The translations under genes and the position numbers were made by a program. From Alphaproteobacteria bacterium (lineage in GTDB: Bacteria; Pseudomonadota; Alphaproteobacteria; Rs-D84), in NCBI GenBank assembly GCA_017549445.1, contig JAFYUU010000019.1:1114-65113 (forward strand): a stretch of DNA of 64,000 nucleotides, in the 5' to 3' direction. The notes under the pieces were generated by a model. The model was not told where the DNA came from. It made no database searches and saw only the letters and a list, made by a program, of their open reading frames with translations. Position 1 is the first letter of the stretch. Every line of letters starts with the position of its first letter. Positions 2,065 to 23,804 of the stretch are shown here, in pieces.

Positions 2065-2066
2065 TA

Positions 2067-2587: not shown

Positions 2588-2594
2588 GGATTGA

Positions 2595-2619: not shown

Positions 2620-2626
2620 AATTTTG

Positions 2627-3889: not shown

Positions 3890-3935
3890 GTGTGAAATTA
3901 TACCAGAAATCAAACAACCGTTCAAGCAACGATTA

Positions 3936-3961
3936 AAATTAAAAACCCGCCATTTGGCGGG
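3936..3961 (-). terminator. rho-independent terminator of the 416-aa gene
   Basis: CCCGCC-ATTT-GGCGGG hairpin at 3946..3961, followed on the minus strand by TTTTTAATTT. Confidence 0.6.
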
Positions 3962-3967
3962 CTTGTT

Positions 3968-5218: not shown

Positions 5219-5330
5219 TCCCTCTCGTTAGTGCGATTTTATCATATTCCAACGCAAAACGCAATCACTGTTTTGTTTTTACCTTTATATTTTGATTGAT
5301 TTAGATGAAAAAATTGCTAATATCATAACC

Positions 5331-6402
5331 ATGATTATGGTCAATGAAGTTTTAACACAAATCGCAGACGACATTTATGCCGTCAGGGGGTTTCTTTGAC
5401 CCCGAAAAACTGAAATCTCAGATTGCAGAACTGGAAGAACAGACAAACAATCCCAACCTGTGGGACAATCCTGACAATGCCAGGGGTGTTTTACAAAAAA
5501 AATCGGGATTGGAAAAGACACTGAACGAACTGTTGGAATTGGAATCCGATTTTTCTACACTGAAAGAACTGTATGAAATCGCACCAGACGACAAGGACGT
5601 GGTTGAAGGTATAGAAAAGCTGCAAGAACGTGCACATCAGGCCAAGTTTATTACACTGTTCCGTGAACCTGCGGACAACAGTGGGGCATTCCTGTTTATT
5701 CAGGCAGGGGCCGGTGGAACCGAGGCACAGGACTGGGTCCAGATGTTAAGCCGTATGTATGCACGTTGGGCCGAACGACATGGTTTTTCATACGAAGTTA
5801 TCGAAGAACACCCAGGCGACACGGCCGGCATAAAAAATATCACGTATAGAATTTCCGGTGAACGGGTCTATGGTTGGCTGAAAAACGAAATCGGTGTGCA
5901 TCGGTTGGTGCGTATTTCACCATTTAATGCCAATGGCAAACGACAGACCAGTTTTGCGTCTGTTGACGTGTGGCCAGACGTAGATGACACGATTGAAATC
6001 GAAATAAACGAAAAAGATTTAAGAATTGATACATATCGGTCTTCGGGTGCGGGTGGCCAGCACGTCAACAAGACCGACAGTGCGGTGCGTATTACCCATA
6101 TTCCAACCAACACGGTCGTGACATGCCAAAATGAACGCAGCCAAATCCAAAATCGTGAAATGGCGATGAAAATGTTGCGAAGCAAGTTGTATGAATTGGA
6201 AATGCAAAAACGTGCAGAAGAAGAAAATGCCGTTCTGGCCCAGCAAAAGAAAATTGAATGGGGCAGTCAGATTCGCAACTATGTCTTGTATCCATATCAA
6301 CTGGTCAAAGATGTGCGGACGGGGGTGGAAAATACGGACTCGGGTGCGGTGTTGGACGGCGATTTGGACGAATTTATGTTGGCGTTATTGCAACGGGGAT
6401 AA
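5331..6402 (+). CDS. prfB: peptide chain release factor 2, programmed +1 frameshift (join 5331..5396,5398..6402)
   Basis: Frame 0 reads MIMVNEVLTQIADDIYAVRGFL and ends at TGA 5397-5399. The +1 frame continues DPEKLKSQIAELEEQ... through SPF and the GGQ motif (RSSGAGGQHVNKTDSAVR). Confidence 0.9.
5385..5399 (+). promoter_or_regulatory. RF2 autoregulatory +1 frameshift site
   Basis: AGGGGG TTT CTT TGA C: an internal SD-like AGGGGG lies 3 nt before the slippery CTT-TGA-C, as in E. coli prfB. Confidence 0.85.
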
Positions 6403-6445
6403 AGTGTTGCATTTTTTTCAAGAACAGATATAATAGGCGACAAAT

Positions 6446-6484
6446 GCACCCATAGCACAACTGGATAATGCGTCACCCTCCGAA
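6446..6484 (+). pseudogene. 5' half of disrupted chromosomal tRNA-Arg(CCG), attL junction
   Basis: GCACCCATAGCACAACTGGATAATGCGTCACC-CTCCGAA covers the acceptor 5' strand, the D arm, the anticodon-stem 5' strand and the loop. Non-tRNA sequence follows. Confidence 0.8.
6478..6484 (+). repeat. 7-bp crossover core CTCCGAA (attL copy)
   Basis: The identical heptamer recurs at 16536..16542 (attR), and at 16350..16356 inside the island-borne tRNA. Confidence 0.7.
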
Positions 6485-6606
6485 TTTCAAAACTCGTTGT
6501 TTTCTGTGGCTTTCATAAGATTTACAAAACTTTATATTTTTTCCTAGCATCAACGATTTACAGTTGTAAAATGTTTTACGTAGTAGGCGGGAGATTTATT
6601 AAATAA

Positions 6607-6658
6607 GTTAGCCATAGGTTAGCCACCATACGTTTCGGTTAGCCAGACTGGTTAGCCA
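6607..6658 (+). repeat. four direct (G)GTTAGCCA repeats, putative integrase arm-type sites
   Basis: Copies lie at 6607-6614, 6618-6625, 6638-6645 and 6651-6658, just upstream of int. The same motif recurs twice at 16432-16450. Confidence 0.6.
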
Positions 6659-6678
6659 ACCGCATAAGGAGAATCCCG

Positions 6679-7887
6679 ATGCCTGCACAATCAAATGATC
6701 GCAGATTTAATTTCACAGAAGCAACCGTTGCCGCATTACCACCTGCCCCACAGGGCAAACGAATTATGTATTATGATACAGCGGTTAAAAGTTTGGCTTT
6801 GCGAGTCAGTTCCACAACAAAAGTCTATTACCTTATCAAAAAAGTGAATAACCAGACTGTTTTTTCAAAAATCGGCGATGCAAATAACACCACTTTGAAA
6901 AACGCACGCAAACGGATGAATGAATTAATCGAACAGACAAATCGTGGTGAAAACCCAAATGACGAAAAACGTAAAATTCGTGATTCCGTAACCGTGCAGG
7001 AGTTTTTTGATGAATACTATTACCCGGACCACTCTGAATTGCGCAAACAAATATCCGCCCAGAAAATGGACCAAGTATCTATGCGACTGTATATACCATC
7101 GGACATCAAAAGCAGAAAAATGCTAACGCTGGCCCGCGCCGACATGGAACGCATGCATAACGCGATTTGGAGACGCACAAACAGCGTTTATTCTGCCAAC
7201 CGTGGCTTAAAACTAATGCGCCAGATGTTTAATAAGGCCATAGATTGGGGATTCCCCTGCACCAATCCCGCCGCACGCATAAAACTGTTCCCAGAAGTCC
7301 AACGCGACCGTTTCTTGCAACCCGAAGAATTAAGCATATTTTTCCAAGAGGTTGCCAATATACCGAATGCCACATCACGTAATTTTATATTGTTAAGCCT
7401 GTTCATGGGCCAACGCCGTCGCAACATCCAAGCCCTGCAATGGTCGGATATAAACCTGGAACGCAAGGTTGCTTATATCAAAAAGACCAAGAACGGCGAA
7501 CCCCAGGTTGTCCCACTATCCACACAAGCAATAGACCTGTTGCACGAAATGGAAACCTTTAAAACCAGCAATTGGTTATTCCCCAGCACACAATCGCGCA
7601 GCGGACACCTGGAAAACCCACAGGTCGCATGGCGCGCCATGAAAGAGCGTGCAGGACTGAAAGACCTGAGATTGCATGATTTACGACGTACATTTGCCAG
7701 CTATCAGGCAATCACAGGTTCTTCCAACGAAATTATTGGCAAAGCCCTGGGCGACAAATCGCCAGCGGTCATACCTATTTATGCACGTCTGACCGAGGAT
7801 CCGGTACGACAAAGCATCCAACGCGCAGCCGACCAGATGTTTGCCGCCGCTAAAATCAACCACAAAACCGAAGAGGCCACACAATGA
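6679..7887 (+). CDS. tyrosine integrase (P4-like, DUF4102 arm-binding N-domain)
   Basis: 402 aa with an AAGGAG RBS. The N-terminus reads FTEATVAALPPAPQGKRIMYYDTAVKSLALRV. The catalytic region contains GQRRRNI...HDLRRTFAS...IYARL. Confidence 0.9.
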   Translation: MPAQSNDRRFNFTEATVAALPPAPQGKRIMYYDTAVKSLALRVSSTTKVYYLIKKVNNQTVFSKIGDANNTTLKNARKRMNELIEQTNRGENPNDEKRKIRDSVTVQEFFDEYYYPDHSELRKQISAQKMDQVSMRLYIPSDIKSRKMLTLARADMERMHNAIWRRTNSVYSANRGLKLMRQMFNKAIDWGFPCTNPAARIKLFPEVQRDRFLQPEELSIFFQEVANIPNATSRNFILLSLFMGQRRRNIQALQWSDINLERKVAYIKKTKNGEPQVVPLSTQAIDLLHEMETFKTSNWLFPSTQSRSGHLENPQVAWRAMKERAGLKDLRLHDLRRTFASYQAITGSSNEIIGKALGDKSPAVIPIYARLTEDPVRQSIQRAADQMFAAAKINHKTEEATQ

Positions 7888-8444
7888 AACAGAAACACTA
7901 CACCCTGGCAGAGGCCGCCCATTGGATTGCATTTAGGAAAACCGATCTTTCGCTGGACTATATATACGCACATGCACAGGAAGTAAGTGACGCAAAGGAT
8001 ATTTTGTTTGATGCACTACTGAAGCAACAGATACGGATCACATCTGACGCAGGCCCAATTATATTCAGAGAATCTTACATGCTGGATTTTGAATTTAATA
8101 CAATAATACCCCCTTTTAGTTGTCCGTATGAACTAAGTGCTCCGCGAAATAACATAAAAATAAGCGCAGCAGATATGCACAGGGAATTTCCATTGGTAGT
8201 AACGGGCTCTAAAATTGAAACTGGTTATTCTGCTCCATACCTAGAAGTGGCGATCGCAGCCATCAATCGTTTAGGGATAACAAATGACAACCAACCATTA
8301 AAAAAGAATATAAACGATACCATTAAGGCAGAATTGGCGAGTCGTAATTTGCCATGTAGCGACCGCAAAGTAGAAGCGCTCGCAACTATGATTCGTTTAC
8401 CAGAAACGGAAAAAGGTGGCAATAGACGACTTAAAAACAACTAA
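7884..8444 (+). CDS. hypothetical protein (island)
   Basis: 186 aa. An ATGA overlap with the int stop suggests translational coupling. No domain recognised. Confidence 0.5.
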   Translation: MKQKHYTLAEAAHWIAFRKTDLSLDYIYAHAQEVSDAKDILFDALLKQQIRITSDAGPIIFRESYMLDFEFNTIIPPFSCPYELSAPRNNIKISAADMHREFPLVVTGSKIETGYSAPYLEVAIAAINRLGITNDNQPLKKNINDTIKAELASRNLPCSDRKVEALATMIRLPETEKGGNRRLKNN

Positions 8445-8512
8445 ACATCGACACTCGCCAACATGCTGGTTTTATTACTACTATAGGTAACCCTGACACC
8501 CTTTTTACACAC

Positions 8513-8542
8513 AACGCCGACACCGTATCGGCGTTGTTTTTT
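8513..8542 (+). terminator. rho-independent terminator
   Basis: AACGCCGA-CACCGTA-TCGGCGTT followed by GTTTTTT. Confidence 0.7.
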
Positions 8543-8659
8543 ATTACACAAACCCACAAAATAACATCAATCAAGGAAGTGCACATCGTTGAGAAATCAA
8601 ATCAAGAAATTCGATGCATCAGATTTCGAAGTTAATGATAAAAAATATGGAGAATAAAA

Positions 8660-8866
8660 ATGATCAGTTTTAATTTTCTAACGACGGCCGAAGTGGCCGA
8701 TTTATTAAGAATCAGAAAAAACACCATTGAACGGTGGCGGGTCAGTCGAACATGTCCAATACCATGGACAAAGATTGGCGGACGCGTTCTGTATCAGAAA
8801 CAAGACATCCTGAACTATCTGGACTGCCAAAAACGAACATCTAATCATCGCATATATGGAGACTAA
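8660..8866 (+). CDS. AlpA/excisionase-family helix-turn-helix protein
   Basis: 68 aa. LTTAEVADLLRIRKNTIERWRVS...GGRVLYQKQDILNYL is typical of the MerR-like Xis/AlpA HTH. Confidence 0.7.
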   Translation: MISFNFLTTAEVADLLRIRKNTIERWRVSRTCPIPWTKIGGRVLYQKQDILNYLDCQKRTSNHRIYGD

Positions 8867-8868
8867 TT

Positions 8869-10098
8869 ATGAGCGAAGAAAACAAGAAAGAAACACAAAA
8901 TCAATCCACAGGCGCTATGCTAAATATCCCTGTGCCCGCCCCATGGGACGAACCAGTGGATGGTAATAAACTTTTGGAGGATCTGTTGCGTGCCTATAAG
9001 AGTTATGTTGTTTTGCCTACCTATGGGGGACCTACCCTGGCGTTGTGGACATTATACACATACGGATTTCAGCATTTTGAATTTTCCCCACGCCTGGCGA
9101 TCACATCACCGGAAAAGCGATGCGGAAAAAGCACTCTGCTAATCATGTTGGAAATATTGACCCATAAAGCGTTAACCGCTTCTAACATTTCAACAGCATC
9201 AATATATCGCGTAATAGAATTGGAACAACCAACACTTTTGCTGGATGAAGCGGATACATTTCTGCGGCGCGAACCGGAAATGGCGGGCATCTTAAATGCA
9301 GGGCATCGTGTAGGCGGTCAAACAATTCGCACAGAATACCGCGGCAGACAAGCTGTCCCCACATGCTTTAAATGCTTTTCGCCATGTGCGATTGCTGCGA
9401 TTAACAAGAAATCGCTGCCCGAACCGCTGCTAGACCGCTCTATCTGTATCCAGATGCGCCGAAAGACGGTAGATGAACATGTCGAAAGGTTGCGAACTCG
9501 AGTGGCCGAGCAACAATTCTACGACCTGCGCCGTAAATGTGTTCGCTTTATGAGTGATTTTGGCGAAGAAATCGCGCGCCTAACACCAGAGATTCCAGAC
9601 GAGCTGTCCAGCCGTGCAGCAGACAACTGGGAACCTTTGCTAGCAATTGCAGATTTCGTAGGTGGAATATGGCCTAAAATTGCAAGAAACGCTGCGATTG
9701 GACTTATTGATAAAAGCGACCCAGACGACGAAAATCTGGGGACGCAATTATTGCTGGACATCCGTCAAATATTTGCGAACTATCCGAACGAAAATATAAA
9801 CTCAGCATTGCTGTGCGAAAAGCTGGCAGAAATCCCAGAAAGCCCATGGGCGGAATACGGATATCGGCACGAGCGCATAAACCCGCGCCAGGTCGCAAAG
9901 AGGCTACGCGAATACAATATACAGTCTGTCAACGTACGATTTGGACATCAGGTTGTCAAGGGTTACCGGATAGTGGATTTTCAAGAAGCCTTTGCTCGAT
10001 ACCTACCCAAAATTGACCGCGACACCGCTACAATCCCAGAAAATGAATCGGATCACGTAGCGGCAATAGAGGCCGCATTCGCTACAATAAACATATAG
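8869..10098 (+). CDS. DUF3631-like P-loop ATPase (replication/mobilisation-associated)
   Basis: 409 aa with Walker A KRCGKST and Walker B LLLDEAD. Proteins of this type are common next to AlpA in P4-like islands. Confidence 0.6.
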   Translation: MSEENKKETQNQSTGAMLNIPVPAPWDEPVDGNKLLEDLLRAYKSYVVLPTYGGPTLALWTLYTYGFQHFEFSPRLAITSPEKRCGKSTLLIMLEILTHKALTASNISTASIYRVIELEQPTLLLDEADTFLRREPEMAGILNAGHRVGGQTIRTEYRGRQAVPTCFKCFSPCAIAAINKKSLPEPLLDRSICIQMRRKTVDEHVERLRTRVAEQQFYDLRRKCVRFMSDFGEEIARLTPEIPDELSSRAADNWEPLLAIADFVGGIWPKIARNAAIGLIDKSDPDDENLGTQLLLDIRQIFANYPNENINSALLCEKLAEIPESPWAEYGYRHERINPRQVAKRLREYNIQSVNVRFGHQVVKGYRIVDFQEAFARYLPKIDRDTATIPENESDHVAAIEAAFATINI

Positions 10099-10312
10099 TA
10101 AATCAGGCATGTAGCGTTGTTGCGTATAAGAAGGGGCAGACGATCCAGTTTGCCCCAACAAAACAAAGCACCAAAAATTCCCCGCATGTGTCTTTTTTCA
10201 CAATTTTTGCCAACTAATACAATTCCTTCAAAAACTCATCCCAGGACACGTCGTTATCACATGACTTTCTGCACACTTGTTCTTTATTCTGTTCTATTTC
10301 TTGAACTGTTTT

Positions 10313-12847
10313 TTATGGCTGTTCGACAAGCTCTTTATAATCACAGCTAGTATAGTTGCCGGGTTTGTAATTACTACACCCATAAAAATCTTTGCCGTAT
10401 TGACTTTTATGATATATCAAATATCCAGAACACTTCGGGCATTTACGTATTTTACGCCCTGCACCAAACTTTTTTATATATTCTGACGTTGAAATTTCGT
10501 TCCAAAATAAACTCGGATTTTTTGCTGGCACAACCAAATAGCATATTTTCTGTGCACGTGTTAATGCAACGTAGAACAGTCGTCGCTCTTCTGCGTATGG
10601 ATATCTATCCAGCTTTACCAATAATTCAGACAGCAACTTATCATCCATTATTTGATTTGGAAAACCTAACGGTCCTGATTCCACGTTTAATATTATAACT
10701 ATATCGGCCTGCAATCCCTTGGCTTTGTGTACAGTCGATACTTCAAATTGCAATTCCGGATACCCTTTATGGCGCAAAAACGCGTCTTTCCCATCGTCTC
10801 CCTGTAATTCCCATTCAAGTTCCATGCTTTCCTTTCTAAAGATTTCCAGATCGGATTTGTTGCGTATCAACAGCATAATCTTTGGATTTTTCTTGAAGGT
10901 TTTTGGATCGGATTTGATTTGCTCTACAATATCATTTACAATATCTGTTAATCCAGTGCTATGACACCCATCAGTTGGACATATAAAGGCTTTAATTTGT
11001 GTTTGATAGTCTGAATGCGAATTTAATTTTTTGCGTTTTTGGTATGGATTTTTCTGCACAAAATCACCAGCTAGGTCAACTAAGTTCTGCCCACTCCGGA
11101 ATGTATCTTCTATAAAATATTCTTTATGATCTGGGAAATATTCTTCAAAGTTTACAAAGAAACGCAAATCCCCACCATTAAATCTATAGATTGACTGCCA
11201 GTCGTCCCCAACACAAAAACAATATGTGTCTGTTTGTTTTTGAATTGCGCGGATTAAATCGCATCTGTCCTTGGCAACATCCTGAAATTCATCAATTAAA
11301 ATATATTTATAATTGCTTAAATGCTCACCAGAAATGACTGCACCGGTTGCACTACGTATCATATCTGAAAAATCAATCAGATTATATTGAGATAAATATT
11401 CGTTATATTGTTTATAAAAAACTTTAAACAGATTAAAAAATACATCTATGCGTTTGCGGTCAAATTCGGACGATTGCTGTAATGTCCGGCCTTGCAATTC
11501 GTTTAAATCGCGTTCTGTCGCGTATCCGTTGGATTTAAACAGACTTAAGAAACGCCCCATTAAACTTGCTAAACTGGACATACCACGCTGTTGTATTAGT
11601 TGCTTAACAACGTCTCTCTTTTGTTCCTGTGTCAGGGGACGCAATTCAACCCCAAAGGCAATCAATTTTTGTTTTAGATTTGTGGCAAGGGCGTGTTGAT
11701 AAAACTCATACAAATGTAAATCTATGACCTTTGCGCCGTCCTTTTTATAATTCGCCTGTTTTATTTCTTTATCAGCAATATATTTGTATGCTTTGTTTCT
11801 GTCCTTTAACCACGGCACAGAATTGTTTTCCATTACCCCCCAATGCTCAATCCAAATATCATATTCTGGCAAATAAAAATCGGGGTTACAGACTGTATTA
11901 CCTGCCTTATCCTGATATGGGTGTTCATATATATACTCGATTCCATTTTCAAACAGCCAATTTGCGATCAAAACCTCGGGTTCACTTTTGAATTTCTCTG
12001 CCTTATTCATACCACGTTTGCGTTTGATTAACATGCTTTTGATACTCTCAAAAGACAAACTATCCAAATACGCAGCATAATCACCCTGATTTCCAAACTC
12101 TTCAAACGACAAGAAACTATCTTTATAGTAGGCGAACCAGCGATACAAATCATCCTGCACCCCTGTATCGTTTGTATTTAGAAAATCCATTATCAGGGCT
12201 TTTGTTTTTTGATCGTCTAACACCCCCACCCGTGAACCATTTATTTTTTCTAAAATTCCCTTTCCCAACTTATGAAATGTTTGGGCAATCTCTGGCATAT
12301 TGTGTGTTTTTAACTTTTGGTTTAAATCGTCGGCTGTATCGTTCGTAAAAGACAGTAATAAAATCTCATTTGCTGATGCCTTGCCCGATGCAAGCAAATA
12401 TGCAACCTTACCCAATATTGTGGTACTTTTTCCGCATCCCGCCCCAGCAACAACCAATGCGTTTTTTTCTTCGTTATATACGGCGTTTTGTTGCTGCTCA
12501 GTTAGTTTAGCTAACGCAGACAGGTGACCATATTTTGATTTTTGGCTATCTACAAACATCTCATTACGCTTTTCTACCAGAATAAAACTATGTCTTTTGG
12601 CTTCTTCTATTTTACTTTTATAAAATGTATACCATGATGATGTTGCAGCGGTATTATCACGAACATATTTTAATAAATTATCCCACTCGTTATGGAACTG
12701 TTTAATTTGTTTTGCTGGTATATATTCCAGGTCCTGTATGCTTTGTAGTATTATTTCTTTGGATTTTTCTAGCAGGTTGCCGAATGAAATAGATGGCACG
12801 GATTCAAACTCAAAACTTTTATCTGTATCGGACCAATAACCAGCCAT
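10313..12847 (-). CDS. SF1 UvrD/Rep/helicase IV-like helicase with internal PD-(D/E)xK-like insert and C-terminal zinc ribbon
   Basis: 844 aa. Walker A AGAGCGKST (aa 134-142). Motif II ILIDEFQD. Also VGDDWQSIYRF, TVHKAKGLQAD and RRLFYVALTRA. The insert EPEVLIANWLFENGIEY...NPDFYLPEYDIWIEHWG spans aa 289-336. The C-terminus reads CPKCSGYL...YGCSNY...SCDY. Confidence 0.8.
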   Translation of the reverse strand: MAGYWSDTDKSFEFESVPSISFGNLLEKSKEIILQSIQDLEYIPAKQIKQFHNEWDNLLKYVRDNTAATSSWYTFYKSKIEEAKRHSFILVEKRNEMFVDSQKSKYGHLSALAKLTEQQQNAVYNEEKNALVVAGAGCGKSTTILGKVAYLLASGKASANEILLLSFTNDTADDLNQKLKTHNMPEIAQTFHKLGKGILEKINGSRVGVLDDQKTKALIMDFLNTNDTGVQDDLYRWFAYYKDSFLSFEEFGNQGDYAAYLDSLSFESIKSMLIKRKRGMNKAEKFKSEPEVLIANWLFENGIEYIYEHPYQDKAGNTVCNPDFYLPEYDIWIEHWGVMENNSVPWLKDRNKAYKYIADKEIKQANYKKDGAKVIDLHLYEFYQHALATNLKQKLIAFGVELRPLTQEQKRDVVKQLIQQRGMSSLASLMGRFLSLFKSNGYATERDLNELQGRTLQQSSEFDRKRIDVFFNLFKVFYKQYNEYLSQYNLIDFSDMIRSATGAVISGEHLSNYKYILIDEFQDVAKDRCDLIRAIQKQTDTYCFCVGDDWQSIYRFNGGDLRFFVNFEEYFPDHKEYFIEDTFRSGQNLVDLAGDFVQKNPYQKRKKLNSHSDYQTQIKAFICPTDGCHSTGLTDIVNDIVEQIKSDPKTFKKNPKIMLLIRNKSDLEIFRKESMELEWELQGDDGKDAFLRHKGYPELQFEVSTVHKAKGLQADIVIILNVESGPLGFPNQIMDDKLLSELLVKLDRYPYAEERRLFYVALTRAQKICYLVVPAKNPSLFWNEISTSEYIKKFGAGRKIRKCPKCSGYLIYHKSQYGKDFYGCSNYKPGNYTSCDYKELVEQP

Positions 12848-12853
12848 AAATAA

Positions 12854-12981
12854 TCTCCCTTAGCAAAACAATAACCGCCATGGGAATTATGGCGGTCGGG
12901 AGAGTTCGTAAATCATATTTCGCAAATGATTCCGGCTGTCTTTGGAATAATCCTGTTATATAACAGACAGCTCCCCGACCG
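12854..12981 (-). promoter_or_regulatory. structured 5' leader of the helicase gene with SD / anti-SD / anti-anti-SD complementarities
   Basis: The SD GGGAGA is the reverse complement of 12854-12859. The anti-SD UCUCCC is the reverse complement of 12898-12903. An 8-bp hairpin lies at 12874-12896. The distal segment 12971-12981 is complementary to 12893-12902. Confidence 0.3.
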
Positions 12982-13212
12982 ATATAGTCAGGGTATAACG
13001 GCACAATTTGCACCATTAACGGAATAACGATGCAAAATCGCACCGTGCGAAATAAGGCTTACGACAGCCCCGAATCCAACTCCCATCGGATTCAATGTGA
13101 ATTATAGCAGATATCGATATAGAATGTCAACAAAATCTATAACATCTTGTTGTTTTTATTCCTTTTATTTGCTATATCATTTTTTAAATAGCAATTAATT
13201 ATAGGACCGACC

Positions 13213-14328
13213 ATGACATTCGTAAAAGACATCGAATTAAATTTGCTGGAAAACAATGCTGATTTACTGAACGGTAAACCATATGCAGAAGCATTAAAAA
13301 ATACAATTCTTCAGAACACACAAAGTAATGAATCTATGGTTGTTGGTTTGCTGGGCGAATGGGGAAGCGGGAAATCTACAATTATAAAAACCGCTGAAGA
13401 AATGATTAAAAAATCTAACAAAAATATTAAGTTTATTAAATACGATGCGTGGAAGTATAAAAAAGACGGTTTTCGTAGAACTTTTTTACTACAAATTCAA
13501 CAATCTCTAGGTCTAAACTCAAATAATTTAATTGATAAGCTGTATTCTAATGAATCACGAGACACTTCCATCAAACACAAAATCAGTTATGCTCGCGTTG
13601 GTTGGTTGGTTTTATTTCTAAGCGCATTATCATTCGTTATTTATTACCTTGCAGGAATAAATATTTTTTCTGCACTTGTCGCTTCATTTATTACGACTAC
13701 ACCTATAATCCCATTAGTAAACGCAAGCTTTAACTGTCTGGACGCATTCAAAACAAGCAAACAAACGCCATTATTGTTTTCTGCGGAGCAATTTGAAGAA
13801 TTTTTCGATGAAATGATAACAAAAGAAACAACTAAGAACCCAAAAATCGTTATTACAATTGATAACATTGATCGATGCGATGCAGAAACCGCTTATTCGC
13901 TACTAAGCGACATTAAAACATTTTTAATTAACAACCCCAAAGTTGTTTTTGTTATTCCTGTGGATGATAACGCCCTTTACCAACACCTGAATAAAGTTTT
14001 TAATTATCAACGTAAACACGCTGGGGAATTTTTGAGAAAAATATTTAATGTTGAAATTAAAATTAAACACTTCGAGGAAATAGAATTGTTTGATTTTGCT
14101 AGCAATTTAAACAAAAAATATAAATTAGGCCTATCTCCTGATGCAATCAGCATAATTTCTAGCGAGTATGCCTCGAACCCTCGTCGCATAATACAATTTT
14201 GCAACAATCTAGAATGTGAAATTTCCGTATTGCTATCAAACGGACTTTTGCCAGCAGAGATCGACAGTCTAAAAAAACATGATATGCAAATTATTGATTA
14301 TAAGGGAAGAATGGCCAGATTACTATAA
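13213..14328 (+). CDS. KAP-family P-loop NTPase, N-terminal part (reading frame broken at an A7 tract)
   Basis: Walker A GEWGSGKST. Two TM helices (GWLVLFLSALSFVIYYLAG / IFSALVASFITTTPIIPLV) are inserted before the Walker B IVITIDNIDRCD, which is the KAP hallmark. Confidence 0.8.
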   Translation: MTFVKDIELNLLENNADLLNGKPYAEALKNTILQNTQSNESMVVGLLGEWGSGKSTIIKTAEEMIKKSNKNIKFIKYDAWKYKKDGFRRTFLLQIQQSLGLNSNNLIDKLYSNESRDTSIKHKISYARVGWLVLFLSALSFVIYYLAGINIFSALVASFITTTPIIPLVNASFNCLDAFKTSKQTPLLFSAEQFEEFFDEMITKETTKNPKIVITIDNIDRCDAETAYSLLSDIKTFLINNPKVVFVIPVDDNALYQHLNKVFNYQRKHAGEFLRKIFNVEIKIKHFEEIELFDFASNLNKKYKLGLSPDAISIISSEYASNPRRIIQFCNNLECEISVLLSNGLLPAEIDSLKKHDMQIIDYKGRMARLL

Positions 14329-16153
14329 CTGTATTTCAAAAGATTATAGATTACTAAATACATATGAACCGAAAAAAATTGAAGAAACATATCCAAACGT
14401 AGAGAATAAAGCAGAACGACAAGGCTTAGACAATTTTTTGCAACGCACTAGTGTATTCGCGTATATAGACGATGAGCGACAACTGGAAAAAATCGTCTCA
14501 AACAATTCGGTCTTTAATTCTATTCCTCTCGAGATTAGGCACGCCGTCCTACATTACGATGAATCTCAAATAAAAAATTACATATCTTTAGATGAAAACA
14601 ACTCAACAATTTTATTGAACTTTATTATTGAACGCCTAAGAGTGGAAGCTCTGAGAAAAACGTGGAATACAGGTTTCCTAACACTATTTAAAACTATTCT
14701 GTACATAAATAACATATCACATATATCAACAACGTCCAACTCTGGGATACAGTTGGAACTCAGGGGAAAAATCCATAATATAATTGACGGATTATTTAAA
14801 CAGCCACAACATATCCTGGATAATTTTATTAAATATTTAAACGATCTATCAGATCAAAAAAAGGACTATTTGATTCGCGATATGATAAACAACTATTTCA
14901 CGCCAGAAATTCTCCACACAACACCTCCCAGTAAAATTGCTATGGATGCGTATAAGACAACCATAACAGGCATAAAAAACACAAGCTTTTTCTCATCATA
15001 TAAGAAATTGTTCAACTCTTGGTATACCAATTCAAAACTATTATTAAAGGATCTAAATATAGAAAATCTAGATGACTTTATTTCTCAAGAATCTCTTGAA
15101 AAGCTTATTGAAGAAATTTCTTTTAGCAATCTAGAAAGACTTCACGATTTTATATATGCAGTTCAAAACATGTCGCATATTCCCGAACAAACTTATGAAG
15201 TTTTTTTCAAAAAACTCTATTCAATAACGCCACAGTACAATGTTCCAAATCAACAAGCGGTTATAGAAAGTTTTAAAATAGCTGTAACTATTTTAAAAAC
15301 AATAAAAAGAGACGATTTGATAATTACTTCATTAGACTCGTATATTACAAATACTACAAAGGACGTCCGAGCATACTCCTACTCTAGCGTACCCCTATTA
15401 TGCATATCTAATAATACGTCTAAAGAAGAAGACAAACGTACCGTATTAGAGTTCCTATCCATAGCATATAAACACACATCAAAGATCGATCTTATCGTTA
15501 AACAACTAAAGGCATTTGTGGCAAAATATACAGACGATAAAGATCTCGTCCTTAATGCTTTGATGCATGCAAATATAAATAATGATTTATCTCCGCTAAT
15601 AGACATTATATTTGGTGGTGAAGCTTATTCAGATGCTTACATATACTGGATTAAGAAACTAACCTTATTAACAGAAGGAAACAAACCGTGTGTGGATGAC
15701 GAAGTTTTGACAAAAGAAATCAAACATATTTTATCATCAATTTTATACATACAAGATACAGACACAGTAGAATCTTTGAATAACCTGTTGGAATTTTTAG
15801 TAGAAAAACGAGGACTCACTTCATCTGCAGCAATTGTTAGCAAGGTTGAAAATGCAGGAAGCAATTTGATTATAAAGTTATCAAACGCTTTAAAAATACT
15901 GGTTTTAGATAAAATTTGCGAGAATATGACCTCCTATGAGCACAATAATGACATTTTAAAATTAATTGCTGTACACGGAAGTAAAACGCAAATTGCATCA
16001 CTTATGCAAGTCATTTTAAAAAAGATTGTTGATGAACGAGATGAAGCAATAGAGATATATAATCAAATTCCTGAAAAATTTATAACAGCACAACACAAAA
16101 AGAAAATTAGGCCATACTTGGAAGAAGATAATGACTCACAAGTAGAAAAGTAA
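14279..16153 (+). CDS. C-terminal part of the KAP-family NTPase (+1 frame relative to 13213..14328)
   Basis: 624 aa. It begins ...KLLIIREEWPDYYN, which continues the KAP core. It overlaps the upstream ORF by 50 nt. Removing one A from 14271-14277 fuses the two into about 980 aa. Confidence 0.65.
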   Translation: MICKLLIIREEWPDYYNCISKDYRLLNTYEPKKIEETYPNVENKAERQGLDNFLQRTSVFAYIDDERQLEKIVSNNSVFNSIPLEIRHAVLHYDESQIKNYISLDENNSTILLNFIIERLRVEALRKTWNTGFLTLFKTILYINNISHISTTSNSGIQLELRGKIHNIIDGLFKQPQHILDNFIKYLNDLSDQKKDYLIRDMINNYFTPEILHTTPPSKIAMDAYKTTITGIKNTSFFSSYKKLFNSWYTNSKLLLKDLNIENLDDFISQESLEKLIEEISFSNLERLHDFIYAVQNMSHIPEQTYEVFFKKLYSITPQYNVPNQQAVIESFKIAVTILKTIKRDDLIITSLDSYITNTTKDVRAYSYSSVPLLCISNNTSKEEDKRTVLEFLSIAYKHTSKIDLIVKQLKAFVAKYTDDKDLVLNALMHANINNDLSPLIDIIFGGEAYSDAYIYWIKKLTLLTEGNKPCVDDEVLTKEIKHILSSILYIQDTDTVESLNNLLEFLVEKRGLTSSAAIVSKVENAGSNLIIKLSNALKILVLDKICENMTSYEHNNDILKLIAVHGSKTQIASLMQVILKKIVDERDEAIEIYNQIPEKFITAQHKKKIRPYLEEDNDSQVEK

Positions 16154-16187
16154 CTTGGGGGACCTAGGGTAGCGGCTTACAAAACTG

Positions 16188-16238
16188 TAAATTTCCGTCG
16201 TTCGTAACCCGCTAACGCGGTGTCACGACGGAAATTTA
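16188..16238. repeat. 14-bp perfect inverted repeat (hairpin) after the KAP gene
   Basis: TAAATTTCCGTCGT (16188-16201) and ACGACGGAAATTTA (16225-16238), with a 23-nt loop. No T-run follows. Confidence 0.6.
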
Positions 16239-16317
16239 TGCTCTTAGCATCCAATCAAACAAACATGAAATTGGTGTTTGATTTTTGCTTAGCTTTATGT
16301 ATAATTACTAAGAAATT

Positions 16318-16394
16318 GCACCCATGGCCTAACTGGATATGGCGCGTCCCTCCGAAGGACGAGGTTACAGGTTCGAATCCTGTTGGGTGCGCCA
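16318..16394 (+). tRNA. tRNA-Arg(CCG), intact island-borne copy
   Basis: GCACCCA TG GCCT..TGGC G CGTCC CTCCGAA GGACG AGGTT ACAGG TTCGAAT CCTGT TGGGTGC G CCA. Total 77 nt. The acceptor stem matches the split tRNA, and the D, anticodon and T stems carry compensatory changes. Confidence 0.9.
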
Positions 16395-16431
16395 AAAACT
16401 TGCTAAAGTTTTATCTGACTTTATCTAAAAA

Positions 16432-16450
16432 GTTAGCCATAGGTTAGCCA
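16432..16450 (+). repeat. two direct GTTAGCCA repeats (second arm of the att region)
   Basis: GTTAGCCATAGGTTAGCCA is identical to 6607-6625. Confidence 0.55.
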
Positions 16451-16535
16451 GATAGTTTTAGCGACAAACAAGCACCCGCCATAACTTGCGGAAAACTGGG
16501 AATTTTATAAAGTGTAAGTGTTATAAGTCCTGAAA

Positions 16536-16580
16536 CTCCGAAGGTGAAGATTGTGGGTTCGAATCCCGCTGGGTGCGCCA
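16536..16580 (+). pseudogene. 3' half of disrupted chromosomal tRNA-Arg(CCG), attR junction
   Basis: CTCCGAA-GGTGA AGATT GTGGG TTCGAAT CCCGC TGGGTGC G CCA. GGTGA pairs with TCACC at 6473-6477. Joined to 6446..6484 it gives a 77-nt cloverleaf. Confidence 0.8.
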
Positions 16581-16611
16581 CTTGTTTTTCTGACCAAAAG
16601 GGGTCAAAAAT

Positions 16612-17064
16612 ATGCGTATTTTCCCGATTTTATTATCTGTTTCAATGCTGACGGCATGCAACAGTGTTTATATGCAACCCAATTCAATGGAACGAGAATC
16701 CGTTGTTTATTCAACCAAGGGCGGATATACACTGCGACCCGTGGTTAAAGAGATTATGGCACAGCGTGGATACACGGTTAAAATTGGCAAAATAAAAAAC
16801 ACTAATCAAATTGCAGAAACAATGGGTCAGGAATTTGAGGCAATAGAAAATCCGTCTGATGCAAAATATATTGTTCGTGTTGCAGAAAGTAGTGAAAAAT
16901 TCCGCCCAATTTGGTGTGCATTAAACGGATTTTGGTGGTGGCGATTTAATATGTCAATTGTTGACAATGAATCAGACCAAGAAATTCTGACGTGGTCGGG
17001 TCGGGGTTGTGCGTCCAGCACCGCCAGATTGTTCGAAAGAATATTAAATGAATTGGAAAAATAA
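16612..17064 (+). CDS. lipoprotein, function unknown
   Basis: 150 aa with the lipobox MRIFPILLSVSMLTAC. Confidence 0.6.
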   Translation: MRIFPILLSVSMLTACNSVYMQPNSMERESVVYSTKGGYTLRPVVKEIMAQRGYTVKIGKIKNTNQIAETMGQEFEAIENPSDAKYIVRVAESSEKFRPIWCALNGFWWWRFNMSIVDNESDQEILTWSGRGCASSTARLFERILNELEK

Positions 17065-17066
17065 AA

Positions 17067-17092
17067 ACCGCCCTAAATGGGGCGATTTTTTT
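17067..17092. terminator. bidirectional terminator
   Basis: CGCCC-TAAATG-GGGCG hairpin flanked by AAAAA and TTTTTTT, between convergent genes. Confidence 0.6.
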
Positions 17093-17095
17093 GAT

Positions 17096-20000
17096 TTAAT
17101 TGAATCCTAATCTTCTTGACACTATGGACGAGACCTGACCACCGACATGTCGGGCTTCAACCTCGATAACATTGTCAAAATACAATTTATAATTTTGCTG
17201 GGGTTGGACATAATACCTCTGTGCCCAATCTATAAATGGTCTTGGTATAGAAGATTTTGACAAACTTTGGAAAGCATGTGTGTTTTCATGAACAATTGTG
17301 TCCAACATCTTGGCAAAATTTGGTGCATCCACAGAGTAGGCAAATTGTCGTGGCCTCATAGACGTTGGATCCCAATGAACACCGTTTGCACCATTCAAGA
17401 CGTTTACATCGTCAATGATTATAACAGTGTTCCCTACGTGGTCACGACGCATTGTGGTCACCAATTCATGAACCTGGTCAACTAAGTATTTTCTTTGATT
17501 ACGTTCTAATTTTTTCCATTGTTTTGCCATGTCGACCAAATCGGTTCTGGTTGCAAATCGAGATACCAATTCATCCGCCAGGTCATTCGCCATGGCTGTG
17601 GCACGTGCCTCGTCAAAGGCATTTACCTGTTTCAACGCACGAACTGCATCTGCGTGGGTTGCAGAATTTTCATATACATATTTCAACTTGGATTCCAAAA
17701 CATAATCTGGCATATCATCATATATTCTGGAAAAAACACTGTCCACACCATCACGCAACCAGTTGGTTGGGGCGTTATCCCATGGACCAAAAATATTTTT
17801 ATCAGATATTGCCAAGAAATACTTGCCAGAGTTATCCATATTTGACGATACATAATACCCCTGTTTCTGCAATGCAGCAATAATGGCAGACACATCATCT
17901 TTGTTGGTGACAACAATTCTGTAATAATCATGCCCCAGTGAATTTTCAGATGCACGACGCAAAAACGCCTGTTTGTTAAATGGCTGCAAGATGTTGGCAA
18001 TTTTGCCCGATGTATCCATATGTCTGAAACGCATAACACGGGCACCGTTTTGTGTGGTCTCGAACAACTCGACATTATGTGCTGCTATTTCAGAATTTAA
18101 CAGATCCCAATCTTGTTTGCTTAAACGGTTTGCCGGCAAACCCACACTTTCCTGACCGCTTAAAAACGCCTTTAAGTATTCGTCAAAATTCTGGCTGGCA
18201 CGTTCACTTAAAGGAATCAACCAATTACCGGGGCTGTTTGCCCAGGATATAAATATATCTTTGTCCGATGCACCCAGGAAACGGCGACCGCCCTGCTCGG
18301 TTCCGGCAGATACGTAAAAGCCCCGTCGTTGCAGTTCATTGATTATATCTGCAACATTATCACCGTCATCAATATAAATACGATAATAATTGGCACCGTT
18401 TAATGACGAACTGCTTCGCAGGAATGCCGATTTGTTAAATCTGCTGACAACGGATACAATGTCATCAACATGAGTGCCCGTAGCACCAACGTGGCCCAAC
18501 CAATGGGTGAATTTGCCAAGTAATCTGGGGGCACTCTTGAACAAATCGTCAATTGCCTGTTCGGGTGCGACAAATATCGATGCCATCATGACGGCCGGGG
18601 TCGCAACCTTTAAGGCAATATCACGCTCGTTCAGGTGCGACGAACCAATCGCAGCCGAAAATTCTGCATCTGATAGCAAAGATGCCATTCTGTCCATTTC
18701 AGATGCAACAACCGACATTTCATCAGGTTCAAGTTTATCTACAATCTCGTTCAAGCGGGCAAAATGCTGGTTCACAATGCGATACGCACACAGATTCTCA
18801 TTGCAGTGCTGGGCCTCGCCCATAAAGGACAAGGCACGATGATGTGGATTTACCTCGTGCAGGCGTTCCAGACCAATAAACACACCGTCAACCGCAACAG
18901 AACCCACAACCGCAACCAAATAATAGGCACCCGTGACCCCTGCCCCGGCAGCGGACGCAATCCCCAGGGTGCCAATCGTCACAACTATACCCGTTGCAAT
19001 GGAAATGCCGTTTCGTATTGTCTGGGCCTGTTTTGCATCATTTAGAACACAGGCGTTTGCACCCTGGTCCCAATGGGTGCCACCAGGTATGGAATCGTTT
19101 GCCAATGCACATTGTTCACGATTTAATGAGCGACAATGTTTTCCATCGTATTTACCACCATGAATCATACAAGAAATACCTGCCATACTGCCGTCTTGTT
19201 CATAGGTTGCAGATTCAGACAAATCGTCAAAGACAAAGTCAACAGGGGATCCGTTCACATAACAGGTTAAAACATCATCTGTTCCAGCAAACGGTCCAAT
19301 CTCGGACAACATCAATGTCGGTGCATAATTACACGAAAACTCAATCAAGGGTTCGTTCTGGGCCGACATATGTGCAATAACATACTGCTTTATTTTTTCT
19401 ATCAACGCAGGGGTCATTTCAACCTGGATTGTATTGGCAAATACCATGTTATCAATACCATATGCGGTTCGCAGATTTGACATGGATGCACCTACAACAC
19501 TGCTAAATACACATGCCAATGCCCCCTTGCGATTGGTAATATTGACTTTTAGACCAAATGTTTGGGCATGCTTGTCAATCAAATCACATACAGTGGCATC
19601 TGTGGTGTCGCATGCACTGGGCCAACTTTCACCAGGGGCAACCATCGTGTCTGCCGACATCCCACTGGGCAAATACTCTAAATCATACAGGGTGCACAGT
19701 GCTTGTTCTGTCCCCTCGGCCAACCAAGCGTCTTTGCTTTCTTCTACATCATCAAATTCGAACTCATAGGCCTCGCCACCGGCACTGCAACGCAGGTAAT
19801 ACTGGCTGGAACGTGTCTGAAAATCGTTTTCACAGGTCAGCATCAAATCATTTTTCTGGCCCCAAATGTCAGCCAGACCAATCGCAGTCAATGGTTGGGT
19901 TTGGACATCTTGGAATACACGAACACATACACCCCATCCGTCACCACACGATGACGAAAATGCAAGGTGTTTGCCGTCTTTGCCCAGGCACAGTTCATGC

Positions 20001-20488
20001 CCCGTGCCATCGTCTTGCCAGGTCCCACCCAATTTTTTACAGGTGGCACGGTTTATTGGTTTGGCTTCCACTGTTTTTCCACGGTTTAGACGGCGGGCAT
20101 CTTTGATTATGCCCTGAATAAATTTAATGCATGTGTCGTGACCAATACTGGCAATTTCATAACCTTCTTGGGCACAGTGACTGGAATGTGGAAATTCCTG
20201 ACAATGGGTAATGTGACCTGCGACACAAACATTCAGCAGGTCCTCAAACGTTATTTTGCCCGTTTTCGAGTTCCAGTGTTTTTGGAACACGGTGGCGGCA
20301 TCCGCCTGGTATTCTGTTGGGATAAATTCGCGCATATTGTCCGCAAATGCAACATAAGGCACACCAACCAACGCAGATAAATTATTTGTGATAATCTGAC
20401 CCTGATCATATGCACCACTGGTAGATGGACCGGCAAAAGCAGAGGCACCAAACATCAAAAAAGGCAAGAAAATCAACATCTTTCTCAT
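17096..20488 (-). CDS. large secreted/membrane protein: Cys-rich N-terminal half, Gly/Ala-rich TM segment, duplicated ~76-aa module, C-terminal HExxH
   Basis: Start taken at MRKMLIFLPFLMFGASAFA (ATG 20488). TM region ISIATGIVVTIGTLGIASAAGAGVTGAYYLVAVVGSVAVDGVFIGL (18869..19006). Repeats at 18218..18445 and 17756..17986. HENTH at 17276..17290. Confidence 0.65.
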   Translation of the reverse strand: MRKMLIFLPFLMFGASAFAGPSTSGAYDQGQIITNNLSALVGVPYVAFADNMREFIPTEYQADAATVFQKHWNSKTGKITFEDLLNVCVAGHITHCQEFPHSSHCAQEGYEIASIGHDTCIKFIQGIIKDARRLNRGKTVEAKPINRATCKKLGGTWQDDGTGHELCLGKDGKHLAFSSSCGDGWGVCVRVFQDVQTQPLTAIGLADIWGQKNDLMLTCENDFQTRSSQYYLRCSAGGEAYEFEFDDVEESKDAWLAEGTEQALCTLYDLEYLPSGMSADTMVAPGESWPSACDTTDATVCDLIDKHAQTFGLKVNITNRKGALACVFSSVVGASMSNLRTAYGIDNMVFANTIQVEMTPALIEKIKQYVIAHMSAQNEPLIEFSCNYAPTLMLSEIGPFAGTDDVLTCYVNGSPVDFVFDDLSESATYEQDGSMAGISCMIHGGKYDGKHCRSLNREQCALANDSIPGGTHWDQGANACVLNDAKQAQTIRNGISIATGIVVTIGTLGIASAAGAGVTGAYYLVAVVGSVAVDGVFIGLERLHEVNPHHRALSFMGEAQHCNENLCAYRIVNQHFARLNEIVDKLEPDEMSVVASEMDRMASLLSDAEFSAAIGSSHLNERDIALKVATPAVMMASIFVAPEQAIDDLFKSAPRLLGKFTHWLGHVGATGTHVDDIVSVVSRFNKSAFLRSSSSLNGANYYRIYIDDGDNVADIINELQRRGFYVSAGTEQGGRRFLGASDKDIFISWANSPGNWLIPLSERASQNFDEYLKAFLSGQESVGLPANRLSKQDWDLLNSEIAAHNVELFETTQNGARVMRFRHMDTSGKIANILQPFNKQAFLRRASENSLGHDYYRIVVTNKDDVSAIIAALQKQGYYVSSNMDNSGKYFLAISDKNIFGPWDNAPTNWLRDGVDSVFSRIYDDMPDYVLESKLKYVYENSATHADAVRALKQVNAFDEARATAMANDLADELVSRFATRTDLVDMAKQWKKLERNQRKYLVDQVHELVTTMRRDHVGNTVIIIDDVNVLNGANGVHWDPTSMRPRQFAYSVDAPNFAKMLDTIVHENTHAFQSLSKSSIPRPFIDWAQRYYVQPQQNYKLYFDNVIEVEARHVGGQVSSIVSRRLGFN

Positions 20489-21441
20489 CTTAATACCCCC
20501 GTGCATTTTTCGGCAACAGATGCCACACGTTTAATCGCAGAAATCTGGGACGCATTAAATACAGTAGCGGTCGTTGCTGCAACCGTCGTCCCAGCAGACA
20601 AAATATTTGCTGTTGTATTCAGATTCTGTTCACGTTTGCGACCCGCATCCGTATTGTCAGCACGTGTTGCGTTCGTATTCGCAACCGCAGAAACGATTGT
20701 TCCAATTGCACCTGTGCCGGCACCAACACCAGACGATACAAGTGCACCAGTCGCACGTGTATCTATCTTGGACAAATCCACATATTCATAATCATCACAC
20801 GCATCTACAATGGTTTGGGCCTCGGATATATCAACACCAGACATACGGGCAGATAACATTGCATTTTTCAACGCATTTACCGATTTAATACAATCTGCAA
20901 CCTGGGTATGCAAGTCCGCATCAACACGATTCGTGCCGGCAATCACAGCACCTGCTACGTTGGTTGCGGTCGCACCCGCCAACAATCCTGTTCGCCAATT
21001 TCCCAGTTTCTTGGATTGATTTTCCAGTTCTTGAATCTGGGCCAAGGTTTTGCTTTTAATTTGGACAACATTATTTTCCAACCCCAACAAAATATCATCC
21101 ATTACCTGGTATTCCCGTTCCAGTTCGGACATCTGAACGTCTGTCAGGGTCTTTTGACGGGCATCTTCGGCCATCTGCAATTCTTTCAATATTTTTTCCA
21201 GTTGTGCCTGCTTGGCATCTTTGTTCGCCTTGGCCAGGCCAGTTGCAGTGGCACCAGCACCGGCAACAGTTCCAACCGCAGTCACCGCTGTATTTATCCC
21301 CGCCAAACGTTTCATATCTGACAACTGGTCATCAATACCAATGCATGCCGTATAAGTTGCACGCAGGGCGTCGTCCAAATCAGCCGAATTTGCATGTGAA
21401 AAAGACGGCAAAAAAGCCAATAAAACAAGCAAATAACGCAT
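20485..21441 (-). CDS. secreted coiled-coil / glycine-zipper-like protein
   Basis: 318 aa. Signal peptide MRYLLVLLAFLPSFSHA. Four Gly/Ala/Thr-rich hydrophobic segments and a central coiled coil. An ATGA overlap links it to the downstream 1130-aa gene. Confidence 0.6.
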   Translation of the reverse strand: MRYLLVLLAFLPSFSHANSADLDDALRATYTACIGIDDQLSDMKRLAGINTAVTAVGTVAGAGATATGLAKANKDAKQAQLEKILKELQMAEDARQKTLTDVQMSELEREYQVMDDILLGLENNVVQIKSKTLAQIQELENQSKKLGNWRTGLLAGATATNVAGAVIAGTNRVDADLHTQVADCIKSVNALKNAMLSARMSGVDISEAQTIVDACDDYEYVDLSKIDTRATGALVSSGVGAGTGAIGTIVSAVANTNATRADNTDAGRKREQNLNTTANILSAGTTVAATTATVFNASQISAIKRVASVAEKCTGVLR

Positions 21442-23798: not shown

Positions 23799-23804
23799 CC
23801 AATG

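Follow-up and report, generated by a model that had tools for sequence, protein, structure and literature searches.

A helicase-nuclease gene and a neighbouring KAP NTPase cassette in an integrative element of an uncultured alphaproteobacterium

Two large, AT-rich genes stand back to back in a 64,000-nucleotide stretch of alphaproteobacterial DNA, hereafter the window (assembly GCA_017549445.1, contig JAFYUU010000019.1, positions 1,114 to 65,113), one encoding a superfamily 1 (SF1) helicase and the other a membrane KAP-family nucleoside triphosphatase (NTPase). A preliminary description of the sequence took the pair, at 10313-16153, for the cargo of an island and for a candidate defence module, and the question that this locus raises is whether the two genes belong together at all. 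We find that their adjacency is coincidental. The region is part of an integrative element of ~10.05 kb, at about 6485-16535, in which the helicase is a fixed backbone gene under purifying selection and the KAP gene is an independent cassette of ~3 kb, frameshifted in the window. The explanation that best fits these observations as a whole, and which we consider probable, is a backbone helicase-nuclease with a function in conflict accompanied by a separate KAP defence cargo. The features on which the argument turns are the following.

10313-12847, minus strand: SF1A (UvrD/helicase-IV-like) helicase of 844 amino acids (aa), a backbone gene with a nested nuclease and a C-terminal zinc ribbon
11648-12010, minus strand: PD-(D/E)xK/Vsr-like nuclease domain, aa ~280-400, nested in helicase domain 1B
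10340-10447, minus strand: topoisomerase-I-type C4 zinc ribbon, aa ~801-836 (Zn_ribbon_Top1, 4.5e-7; 30 bits, just below the 32-bit cut-off)
12544-12847, minus strand: variable N-terminal module of the helicase, aa 1-~100, swapped or absent in relatives
12862-13094, minus strand: conserved leader RNA, ~233 nt and structured, with an intrinsic terminator at its 3' end
13101-13130, minus strand: sigma-70-type promoter of leader and helicase (TTGACA, 18 nt, TG-n-TATAAT; 12 of 12 matches)
13111-16155, plus strand: KAP cassette of 3,045 bp, an insertion in a cargo hotspot, with boundaries at 13110/16156
13213-16153, plus strand: KAP-family NTPase gene, 979 aa if intact, with one additional A in the run at 14271-14277

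Backbone and cargo can be told apart by comparison with relatives of the element, namely L001-L011 from metagenomes, to which L186 is added. A BLAST comparison of window positions 5001-17500 with L001-L011 divides the element into these blocks.

6407-7933: conserved; integrase gene (int)
7934-8593: variable; small open reading frame (ORF)
8594-12543: conserved; HTH_17, DUF3631 and ~90% of the helicase
12544-12863: variable; helicase N-terminus
12864-13110: conserved; most of the spacer between the two large genes
13111-16155: restricted to the window, L005 and L006; KAP
16156-16580: conserved; tRNA region

The helicase adjoins the DUF3631 gene, collinear with int, in L001-L011 and in L186, at nucleotide identities that range from ~96% (L001-L005) through 90% (L186) and 86% (L010/L011) to 65-72% (L007-L009), and it does so with or without KAP, so that its designation as cargo must be abandoned. 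In the minimal 7-kb unit of the element it is the sole large gene besides those for integration and replication (rep). Comparison with L010 gives a ratio of nonsynonymous to synonymous substitution (dN/dS) of 0.10 for the helicase overall, with 0.07-0.09 in the core, 0.089 in the nuclease insert and 0.31 in the first 100 residues. Against L007, the dN of the helicase is 0.30, that of int 0.11 and that of DUF3631 0.175, the helicase protein thus diverging two to three times faster than the other two.

The KAP cassette behaves differently. It is 99.4% identical between the window and L005/L006 and is absent from L001-L004 and L007-L011, where position 13110 meets 16156 via ~64 bp of filler, and at the same position L186 (2-2957) carries a HamB-like (Hachiman-type) DEAD-box helicase (PADLOC, 4.1e-56); the contig end truncates the ORF upstream of this gene, which matched neither DUF1837 nor HamA. 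The position is therefore a hotspot with conserved flanks and alternative contents (empty, KAP or HamB-like), and the description of KAP as cargo was correct. Low GC content had been given as a mark of a two-gene cargo, and the GC content is indeed low: 36.7% in the helicase and 31.7% in the KAP cassette, against 46-47.5% in int and DUF3631 and 42.8% in the window, the original spot count of 19/60 being reproduced over 13441-13500. Of that claim the composition and the KAP gene stand, and the helicase, as backbone, does not.

Co-occurrence outside the element points the same way. Among 80 helicase relatives from GTDB genomes, 15 have the nuclease insert, and within 10 kb of these 15 there is neither a KAP gene (0/15) nor a DUF3631 gene (0/15). 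Conversely, a UvrD-like gene of any kind accompanies KAP at one of 86 loci (80 metagenomic and 6 viral), and that one lacks the nuclease insert; DUF3631 is found at 0/86 and a related integrase at 3/86. The view that the two genes act as one module fails on these counts, and the alternative that had been offered beside it, two independent single-gene systems, survives with the amendment that only KAP is cargo.

The helicase itself is well defined. The motifs previously read in it (AGAGCGKST, ILIDEFQD and VALTRA, the insert NPDFYLPEYDIWIEHWG and the C-terminal CPKC...GCSNY...C) are all present in the 844-aa ORF, which matches Pfam UvrD-helicase at 7.6e-40 and UvrD_C at 5e-18. Over an alignment of 40 homologues with 33-90% identity, which defines invariance here, helicase motifs I-VI are invariant and C803, C806 and C824 of the zinc ribbon are conserved. 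The family comprises 965 database proteins at E <= 1e-5, with a Top1 zinc ribbon in almost all of the 120 best, and although its best curated match is helicase IV (NF008276, 2.2e-89), the protein is not a helicase IV orthologue: it scores 300.8 bits against a cut-off of 543, in two stretches and with the insert unaligned. Among solved structures the nearest are PcrA, Rep and UvrD, and a sequence search of solved structures with the helicase and KAP families found generic cores only. The distribution is sporadic, with homologues on 115 plasmids, those of Acinetobacter, Vibrio, Rhizobium and E. coli among them, and in essentially no genuine phage genome; a scan of genome contigs returned only distant relatives. 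On plasmids the neighbours include a Lit family protein, insertion sequence elements and a toxin-antitoxin pair, and in another case two DUF262 genes and a GIY-YIG nuclease, while among 141 neighbour proteins around the 15 chromosomal loci there are three N6 methyltransferases and one McrBC. Literature searches found no paper on this architecture, and the protein belongs to a widespread, unnamed helicase-IV-like family. Its N-terminal module is replaced by a non-homologous module of ~300 aa in L002-L005 and is absent from L007, and family searches with the N-terminal modules gave no match. In relatives the helicase is also called at 877 and 928 aa; these lengths were rejected as over-extended through the leader, the ribosome-binding site and ATG being conserved. 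RF03531, the C. difficile 'sRNA included into helicase gene' (a small RNA family), matches the motif V/VI coding region below threshold (10521-10616, minus strand; 37.6 bits against 65.2), most likely a reflection of protein-coding conservation.

What sets the protein apart is the insert. Residues ~104-158 of PcrA, in domain 1B, correspond to profile positions ~220-489 of the helicase, about 270 positions, and within this expansion S288, E291, E308, P322, D323, E334, H335 and K363 are invariant. Four of these are acidic (E291, E308, D323 and E334), so that the insert is not one that lacks conserved acids. It matches PDC-S69 (3.8e-12) and HEAT_CxxC_PDDEXK (1.4e-9) in PADLOC and a phage 'Holliday junction resolvase' family at 4e-7, and reaches Pfam Vsr at 0.012 (15.8 bits, under the cut-off of 27). 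The AlphaFold model of the insert, with a mean predicted local distance difference test (pLDDT) score of 91.7, has the order alpha-beta-beta-beta-alpha-beta as in PD-(D/E)xK enzymes, and its Foldseek neighbours are RAP, R2 RLE, the DUF559-like NGO0050, TnsA and PA endonucleases. The resemblance to nucleases noted earlier is thus borne out as a PD-(D/E)xK/Vsr-like domain by invariant residues, profiles and predicted fold.

Upstream of the helicase lies the 365-bp spacer, 12848-13212, that had been called structured, and it does fold far better than shuffles (z = -7.3 for the minus strand, -4.6 for the plus). The TGnTATAAT box of the promoter is kept in all relatives, homology ending just upstream of the -10 box in every case. 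The transcript would begin with the leader RNA, whose terminator (12873-12897 and a U tract) is followed by the ribosome-binding site AAGGGAG and the ATG at 12847. In L010/L011 the leader is 98.2% identical to that of the window, compared with 87.6% for the helicase core and 85.9% for DUF3631, and a diverged homologue in L007 retains the same architecture with z = -6.5. The 5' strand of the terminator would be masked by a candidate antiterminator, the pairing GGUCGGGGAG : CUCUCCCGACC, which is conserved in L007 (-20.5 kcal/mol, against -20.8 in the window), and the sequence is consistent with a terminator/antiterminator leader. The spacer and leader match no Rfam family at E <= 1, and a scan of viral contigs with the leader motif returned nothing. 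A 74-aa ORF in the spacer (12819-13043, minus strand) was rejected as a gene: the indels that distinguish L007 (233 against 207 nt) have lengths not divisible by three, and the region adopts an RNA fold.

The KAP gene is present in the window as two ORFs on the plus strand, 13213-14328 and 14279-16153, which overlap at an A7 run (14271-14277). Deletion of one A, as the frameshift proposed at first sight would require, yields a protein of 979 aa that is 99% identical to P0121, an intact 979-aa homologue, and the intact alleles in L005 and L006 carry A6. Both GEWGSGKST and DNIDRCD were recovered, with a KAP_NTPase match at 4e-35 (121.9 bits against a cut-off of 20), as were the two transmembrane (TM) helices ahead of DNIDRCD, which hydropathy and AlphaFold place in a hairpin at aa ~126-174 (encoded at ~13588-13734), between Walker A (aa 48-55) and Walker B (aa ~216-222). 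The AlphaFold model (pLDDT 83) consists of a P-loop domain with this hairpin followed by an all-alpha C-terminal solenoid of ~630 aa that matches no family, and its fold neighbours are SAMD9, RADAR RdrA, Orc1/Cdc6 and karyopherin-like repeats. The family has 398 matches, mostly of ~980-1030 aa and from several phyla, with type I restriction-modification specificity subunits and an IetA-like ATPase among the neighbours of relatives; in viral contigs a scan found six distant KAP matches only, and no close DUF3631 relative. Distant KAP homologues (33-37% identity) in L096 (12987-14162), L097 and L092 adjoin tyrosine integrases related to that of the window (phmmer 1e-91 in L096), without DUF3631 or the helicase, which suggests that elements with related integrases have taken up the KAP family as cargo more than once. 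Just 3' of the KAP stop, at 16188-16238, lies a perfect 14-bp inverted repeat, TAAATTTCCGTCGT / ACGACGGAAATTTA, in a block conserved even without KAP.

The remainder of the element consists of the following features.

6446-6484, plus strand: attL, where the 5' half of the host tRNA-Arg(CCG) stands orphaned; its last 7 bp (6478-6484) are the crossover core CTCCGAA
6607-6658, plus strand: four GTTAGCCA repeats preceding int, which presumably bind the integrase as arm-type sites
6679-7887, plus strand: tyrosine integrase, 402 aa (Phage_integrase 1.9e-20, Arm-DNA-bind_3 5.5e-9, phrog_1 integrase 7.6e-52)
7884-8444, plus strand: small ORF, 186 aa, in the variable segment 7934-8593, without family match
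8660-8866, plus strand: HTH_17 helix-turn-helix (HTH) protein of AlpA/excisionase type, 68 aa (HTH_17 5.9e-11; phrog_66 'excisionase and transcriptional regulator' 2.9e-7)
8869-10098, plus strand: DUF3631 (RepAM-like) P-loop protein, 409 aa (DUF3631 7.7e-50)
16318-16394, plus strand: complete tRNA-Arg(CCG) inside the element (ARAGORN; Rfam tRNA, 64 bits), 141 bp from the right end
16536-16580, plus strand: attR, the orphan 3' half of the host tRNA-Arg(CCG), beginning with the core CTCCGAA (16536-16542)

The backbone of the element is thus a tyrosine integrase, a small variable ORF (replaced in relatives by non-homologous ORFs of 188, 205 or 126 aa), an AlpA-type HTH protein, a DUF3631 protein, the helicase-nuclease with its leader, and a tRNA-Arg(CCG) of its own. 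In the actinomycete element pMEA300 the replication initiator is RepAM, for which DUF3631 serves as a marker (PMC3218068); the DUF3631 protein likely has this role here. Pfam and PHROG profile searches found no morphogenesis-related family in any ORF of the element. Two further GTTAGCCA copies at 16432-16450 in the right arm place these repeats on both arms around the core. The element is a mosaic, with an L010 int 94.5% identical to that of the window and a DUF3631 gene only 85.9% identical.

The element entered the anticodon loop of a host tRNA-Arg(CCG) by crossover in CTCCGAA, a feature that, like the leader, is absent from the preliminary description. The anticodon-stem strands of the two orphan halves, TCACC and GGTGA, pair with one another, only the loop CTCCGAA is common to both, and the joined halves are called as tRNA-Arg(CCG) by ARAGORN. 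L010 (1-14155) holds two complete minimal 7-kb units in direct tandem (int, 188-aa ORF, DUF3631, helicase and tRNA), and between them, at the attP junction (TGAAA-CTCCGAA-TTTCA), window positions 16542 and 6478 meet and overlap by 7 bp. Each unit of this array contains the element-borne tRNA-Arg(CCG). The host tRNA gene is restored at neither junction of the element; a diverged complete copy is found within the element instead, and the host, its own gene split and a replacement supplied, could therefore depend on the element for the reading of CGG codons. The empty site, attB, was not found in the related genome L182, because synteny upstream of a Lon-like gene is not conserved there. The Lon-like AAA protein of the host shares 85-86% identity with proteins from metagenome-assembled genomes of uncultured alphaproteobacteria.

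Beyond the element, the window contains a tmRNA (transfer-messenger RNA) gene at 23791-24142 with the predicted tag peptide AANDNVRLAMAA, and two very large ORFs, at 17096-20506 (minus strand, 1136 aa) and 30861-38147 (plus strand, 2428 aa). Where the former lies, L005 has a 1402-aa product that matches nothing in Pfam, so that this locus varies in length. In L002, ~5 kb past the right end and outside the element, a Gabija-looking gene pair is present at 1028-4123, encoding a 554-aa AAA_15/AAA_21 protein and a 476-aa UvrD-like protein.

From these features we propose, for the helicase, a role in conflict with phage or with rival mobile DNA, an assignment that we favour tentatively over one in replication or repair. 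The enzyme would act as a 3'-5' SF1A translocase, and with the Vsr-like nuclease seated in domain 1B it would probably nick or degrade the DNA that it unwinds. The zinc ribbon would grip DNA, while the swappable N-terminal module may fix the specificity for a target or trigger. Expression would be gated by the terminator/antiterminator leader and remain off until a signal is received. KAP, for its part, would be a switch of the STAND (signal transduction ATPases with numerous domains) type and a single-gene defence protein, the alpha-solenoid of which may sense a phage component and the membrane hairpin or an oligomer of which may carry out the response; in a 2025 preprint, single KAP NTPases whose C-terminal regions are uncharacterised are reported to protect against phage in a manner that requires Walker B (PMC12632615). 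In the window it appears to be inactivated by the one-base insertion, A6 to A7. A more specific version would make the helicase-nuclease and its leader a new single-protein conflict or immunity module that is carried constitutively by this family of tRNA-splitting elements. Here the leader would be a sensor that opens an antiterminator when a phage infects or the element excises, the target would be selected by the swappable N-terminal domain, and the domain-1B nuclease would cut DNA as the SF1A motor threads it; we regard this as distinctly unlikely, and a defence role for either protein is in any case an inference.

Several observations weigh against this model. The PADLOC matches of the helicase, of which the best 25 of 47 were considered for the whole protein, are generic UvrD cores (GajB, RTasHel), and none is a whole-protein defence family. 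Foldseek gives the nuclease fold weak support, with a best E of 0.037. The near-identity of the leader may partly be due to recent recombination rather than constraint, since the element is a mosaic, and the covariation support for the leader RNA draws on only about three lineages. The A7 run in KAP could be an assembly error. Chromosomal neighbours of the helicase are heterogeneous, many of them housekeeping genes, and one plasmid homologue lies within a type IV secretion system (T4SS) cluster. Finally, strict co-inheritance with int and rep is what is expected of a life-cycle gene and not of a payload.

This last point leads to the most serious of the rivals, which we nevertheless consider unlikely: the helicase may be a life-cycle enzyme whose Vsr-like domain nicks the excised element at an origin and whose SF1A motor unwinds from that nick, acting with the RepAM-like protein in replication or in helper transfer or packaging. 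Its position beside DUF3631, in unchanged order in all lineages, is readily understood in this way, as are the purifying selection acting on it, its standing as the sole large non-recombination gene of the 7-kb unit and the T4SS-associated homologue. Furthermore, Pfam finds no other helicase or primase in the element, and it is common for a RepAM element to have acquired a further protein for replication, for instance a Prim-Pol (PMC3218068). The same family, however, also occurs alone in chromosomes and plasmids, and without DUF3631 at the loci examined, which implies an activity independent of RepAM. Nor does the GC content of the gene resemble that of int and rep, and an N-terminus that is swapped among near-identical elements, together with evolution faster than that of int and rep, would be unusual for a replication core.

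A further explanation would make the helicase a repair or housekeeping-type accessory paralogue of helicase IV and give KAP a membrane role outside defence. The best curated match, the label 'DNA helicase-4' that several sources give to homologues and the many chromosomal copies among housekeeping genes speak for it, but the score far below the helicase IV cut-off, the different architecture conferred by nested nuclease and zinc ribbons, and the patchy, plasmid-rich distribution all count against it; for KAP, the use of its position as a hotspot also by the HamB-like gene and the single-gene defence demonstrated for other members (PMC12632615) do likewise. The joint proposal is accordingly improbable, and a repair role taken for the helicase by itself is similarly doubtful. 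As for one two-component defence system, adjacent, divergent and AT-rich though the genes are, it is exceedingly improbable, as the pair in L005 belongs to the same element (94-99% identity) and is not an independent occurrence, L001-L004, L007-L011 and L186 have the helicase without KAP, the pairing is all but missing from unrelated loci (0/15 and 1/86), KAP is a discrete 3,045-bp insertion, and the window KAP is frameshifted beside an intact helicase.

The backbone-plus-cargo reading, with the helicase in conflict and KAP in defence, has consequences for how such regions are mined. Back-to-back AT-rich ATPase genes can mimic a two-component system and yet be unrelated, a caution for searches of defence islands. 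The exact cargo position in a small element of uncultured gut-type Alphaproteobacteria is now available and can be mined for further defence genes. The large unnamed helicase family, with its well-defined Vsr-like nuclease in domain 1B, is a target for experiment, and the leader is a candidate cis-regulatory RNA outside the Rfam families. The integration strategy is itself unusual, in that a tRNA gene is split, a replacement is supplied and the host may be rendered dependent on the element.

The earlier statement that the pair corresponds to no named system holds, none having been matched, and the comparison with known systems is best made protein by protein. The UvrD core of the helicase matches the GajB profile of Gabija (6.1e-43) and GajB structures, the best stretch, aa 476-676, being the generic helicase core. 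Gabija was rejected because no GajA is present, the neighbouring DUF3631 and KAP proteins having no GajA match. Like Gabija, Hhe, Nhi and Hna, the protein combines an SF1 helicase with nuclease activity and is encoded on a mobile element; unlike them, it carries the nuclease inside domain 1B and not as a separate subunit or a terminal domain. HheA, a single-gene system of helicase and Vsr nuclease, and Nhi use Upf1/Dna2-like SF1B motors, whereas the helicase here is a UvrD/PcrA-like SF1A enzyme, and neither was among the five PADLOC matches of the insert (E <= 10) or the best 25 of 47 of the whole protein. It shares all SF1A motifs with E. coli helicase IV (HelD) and with PcrA, UvrD and Rep, from which it differs by ~215 extra residues in domain 1B, including the nuclease, by the C-terminal Top1-type zinc ribbon and by the variable N-terminus. 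The domain-1B helicase-nuclease architecture is not known from any named defence system.

KAP resembles PifA, QatA, TmnA, PDC-S20 and EF_KAP in its KAP P-loop and TM helices, its long uncharacterised C-terminus and its position as a single gene in a mobile hotspot. Its NTPase domain matches PDC-S20 at 9e-19 in the 371-aa N-terminal ORF and at 1e-16 in the intact protein, QatA at 1.8e-18 (intact protein) and PifA at 4e-17 (N-terminal ORF). Qat was rejected, the QatA match reaching 73.9 bits against a cut-off of 600 and the element containing no QatBCD and no QueC- or TatD-like gene. Tmn was rejected likewise, as the intact 979-aa protein matches at E <= 10 only QatA, PDC-S20, PifA and LeoBC, and not TmnA. 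The helices of EF_KAP are N-terminal (PMC12632615), whereas the hairpin of the present protein falls within the P-loop domain, and relative to the defence KAPs it is a protein of 979 aa that is frameshifted in the window.

The element as a whole resembles both P4-like satellites and actinomycete integrative and conjugative elements (AICEs) in its integrase, AlpA-type HTH protein, replication protein, integration into a tRNA gene and single hotspot. The term P4-like, used for it at the outset, does not apply in the strict sense: the replication gene is DUF3631, and the alpha-type primase-helicase of P4, its capsid-remodelling genes and any morphogenesis family are lacking. With the RepAM replicons among AICEs it has DUF3631 in common, and it differs from them by the lack of an FtsK/Tra gene. 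From P4 and AICEs alike it is distinguished by its host, an uncultured alphaproteobacterium, and by the fate of the target tRNA, which is not rebuilt on integration and is replaced by a gene borne on the element itself.

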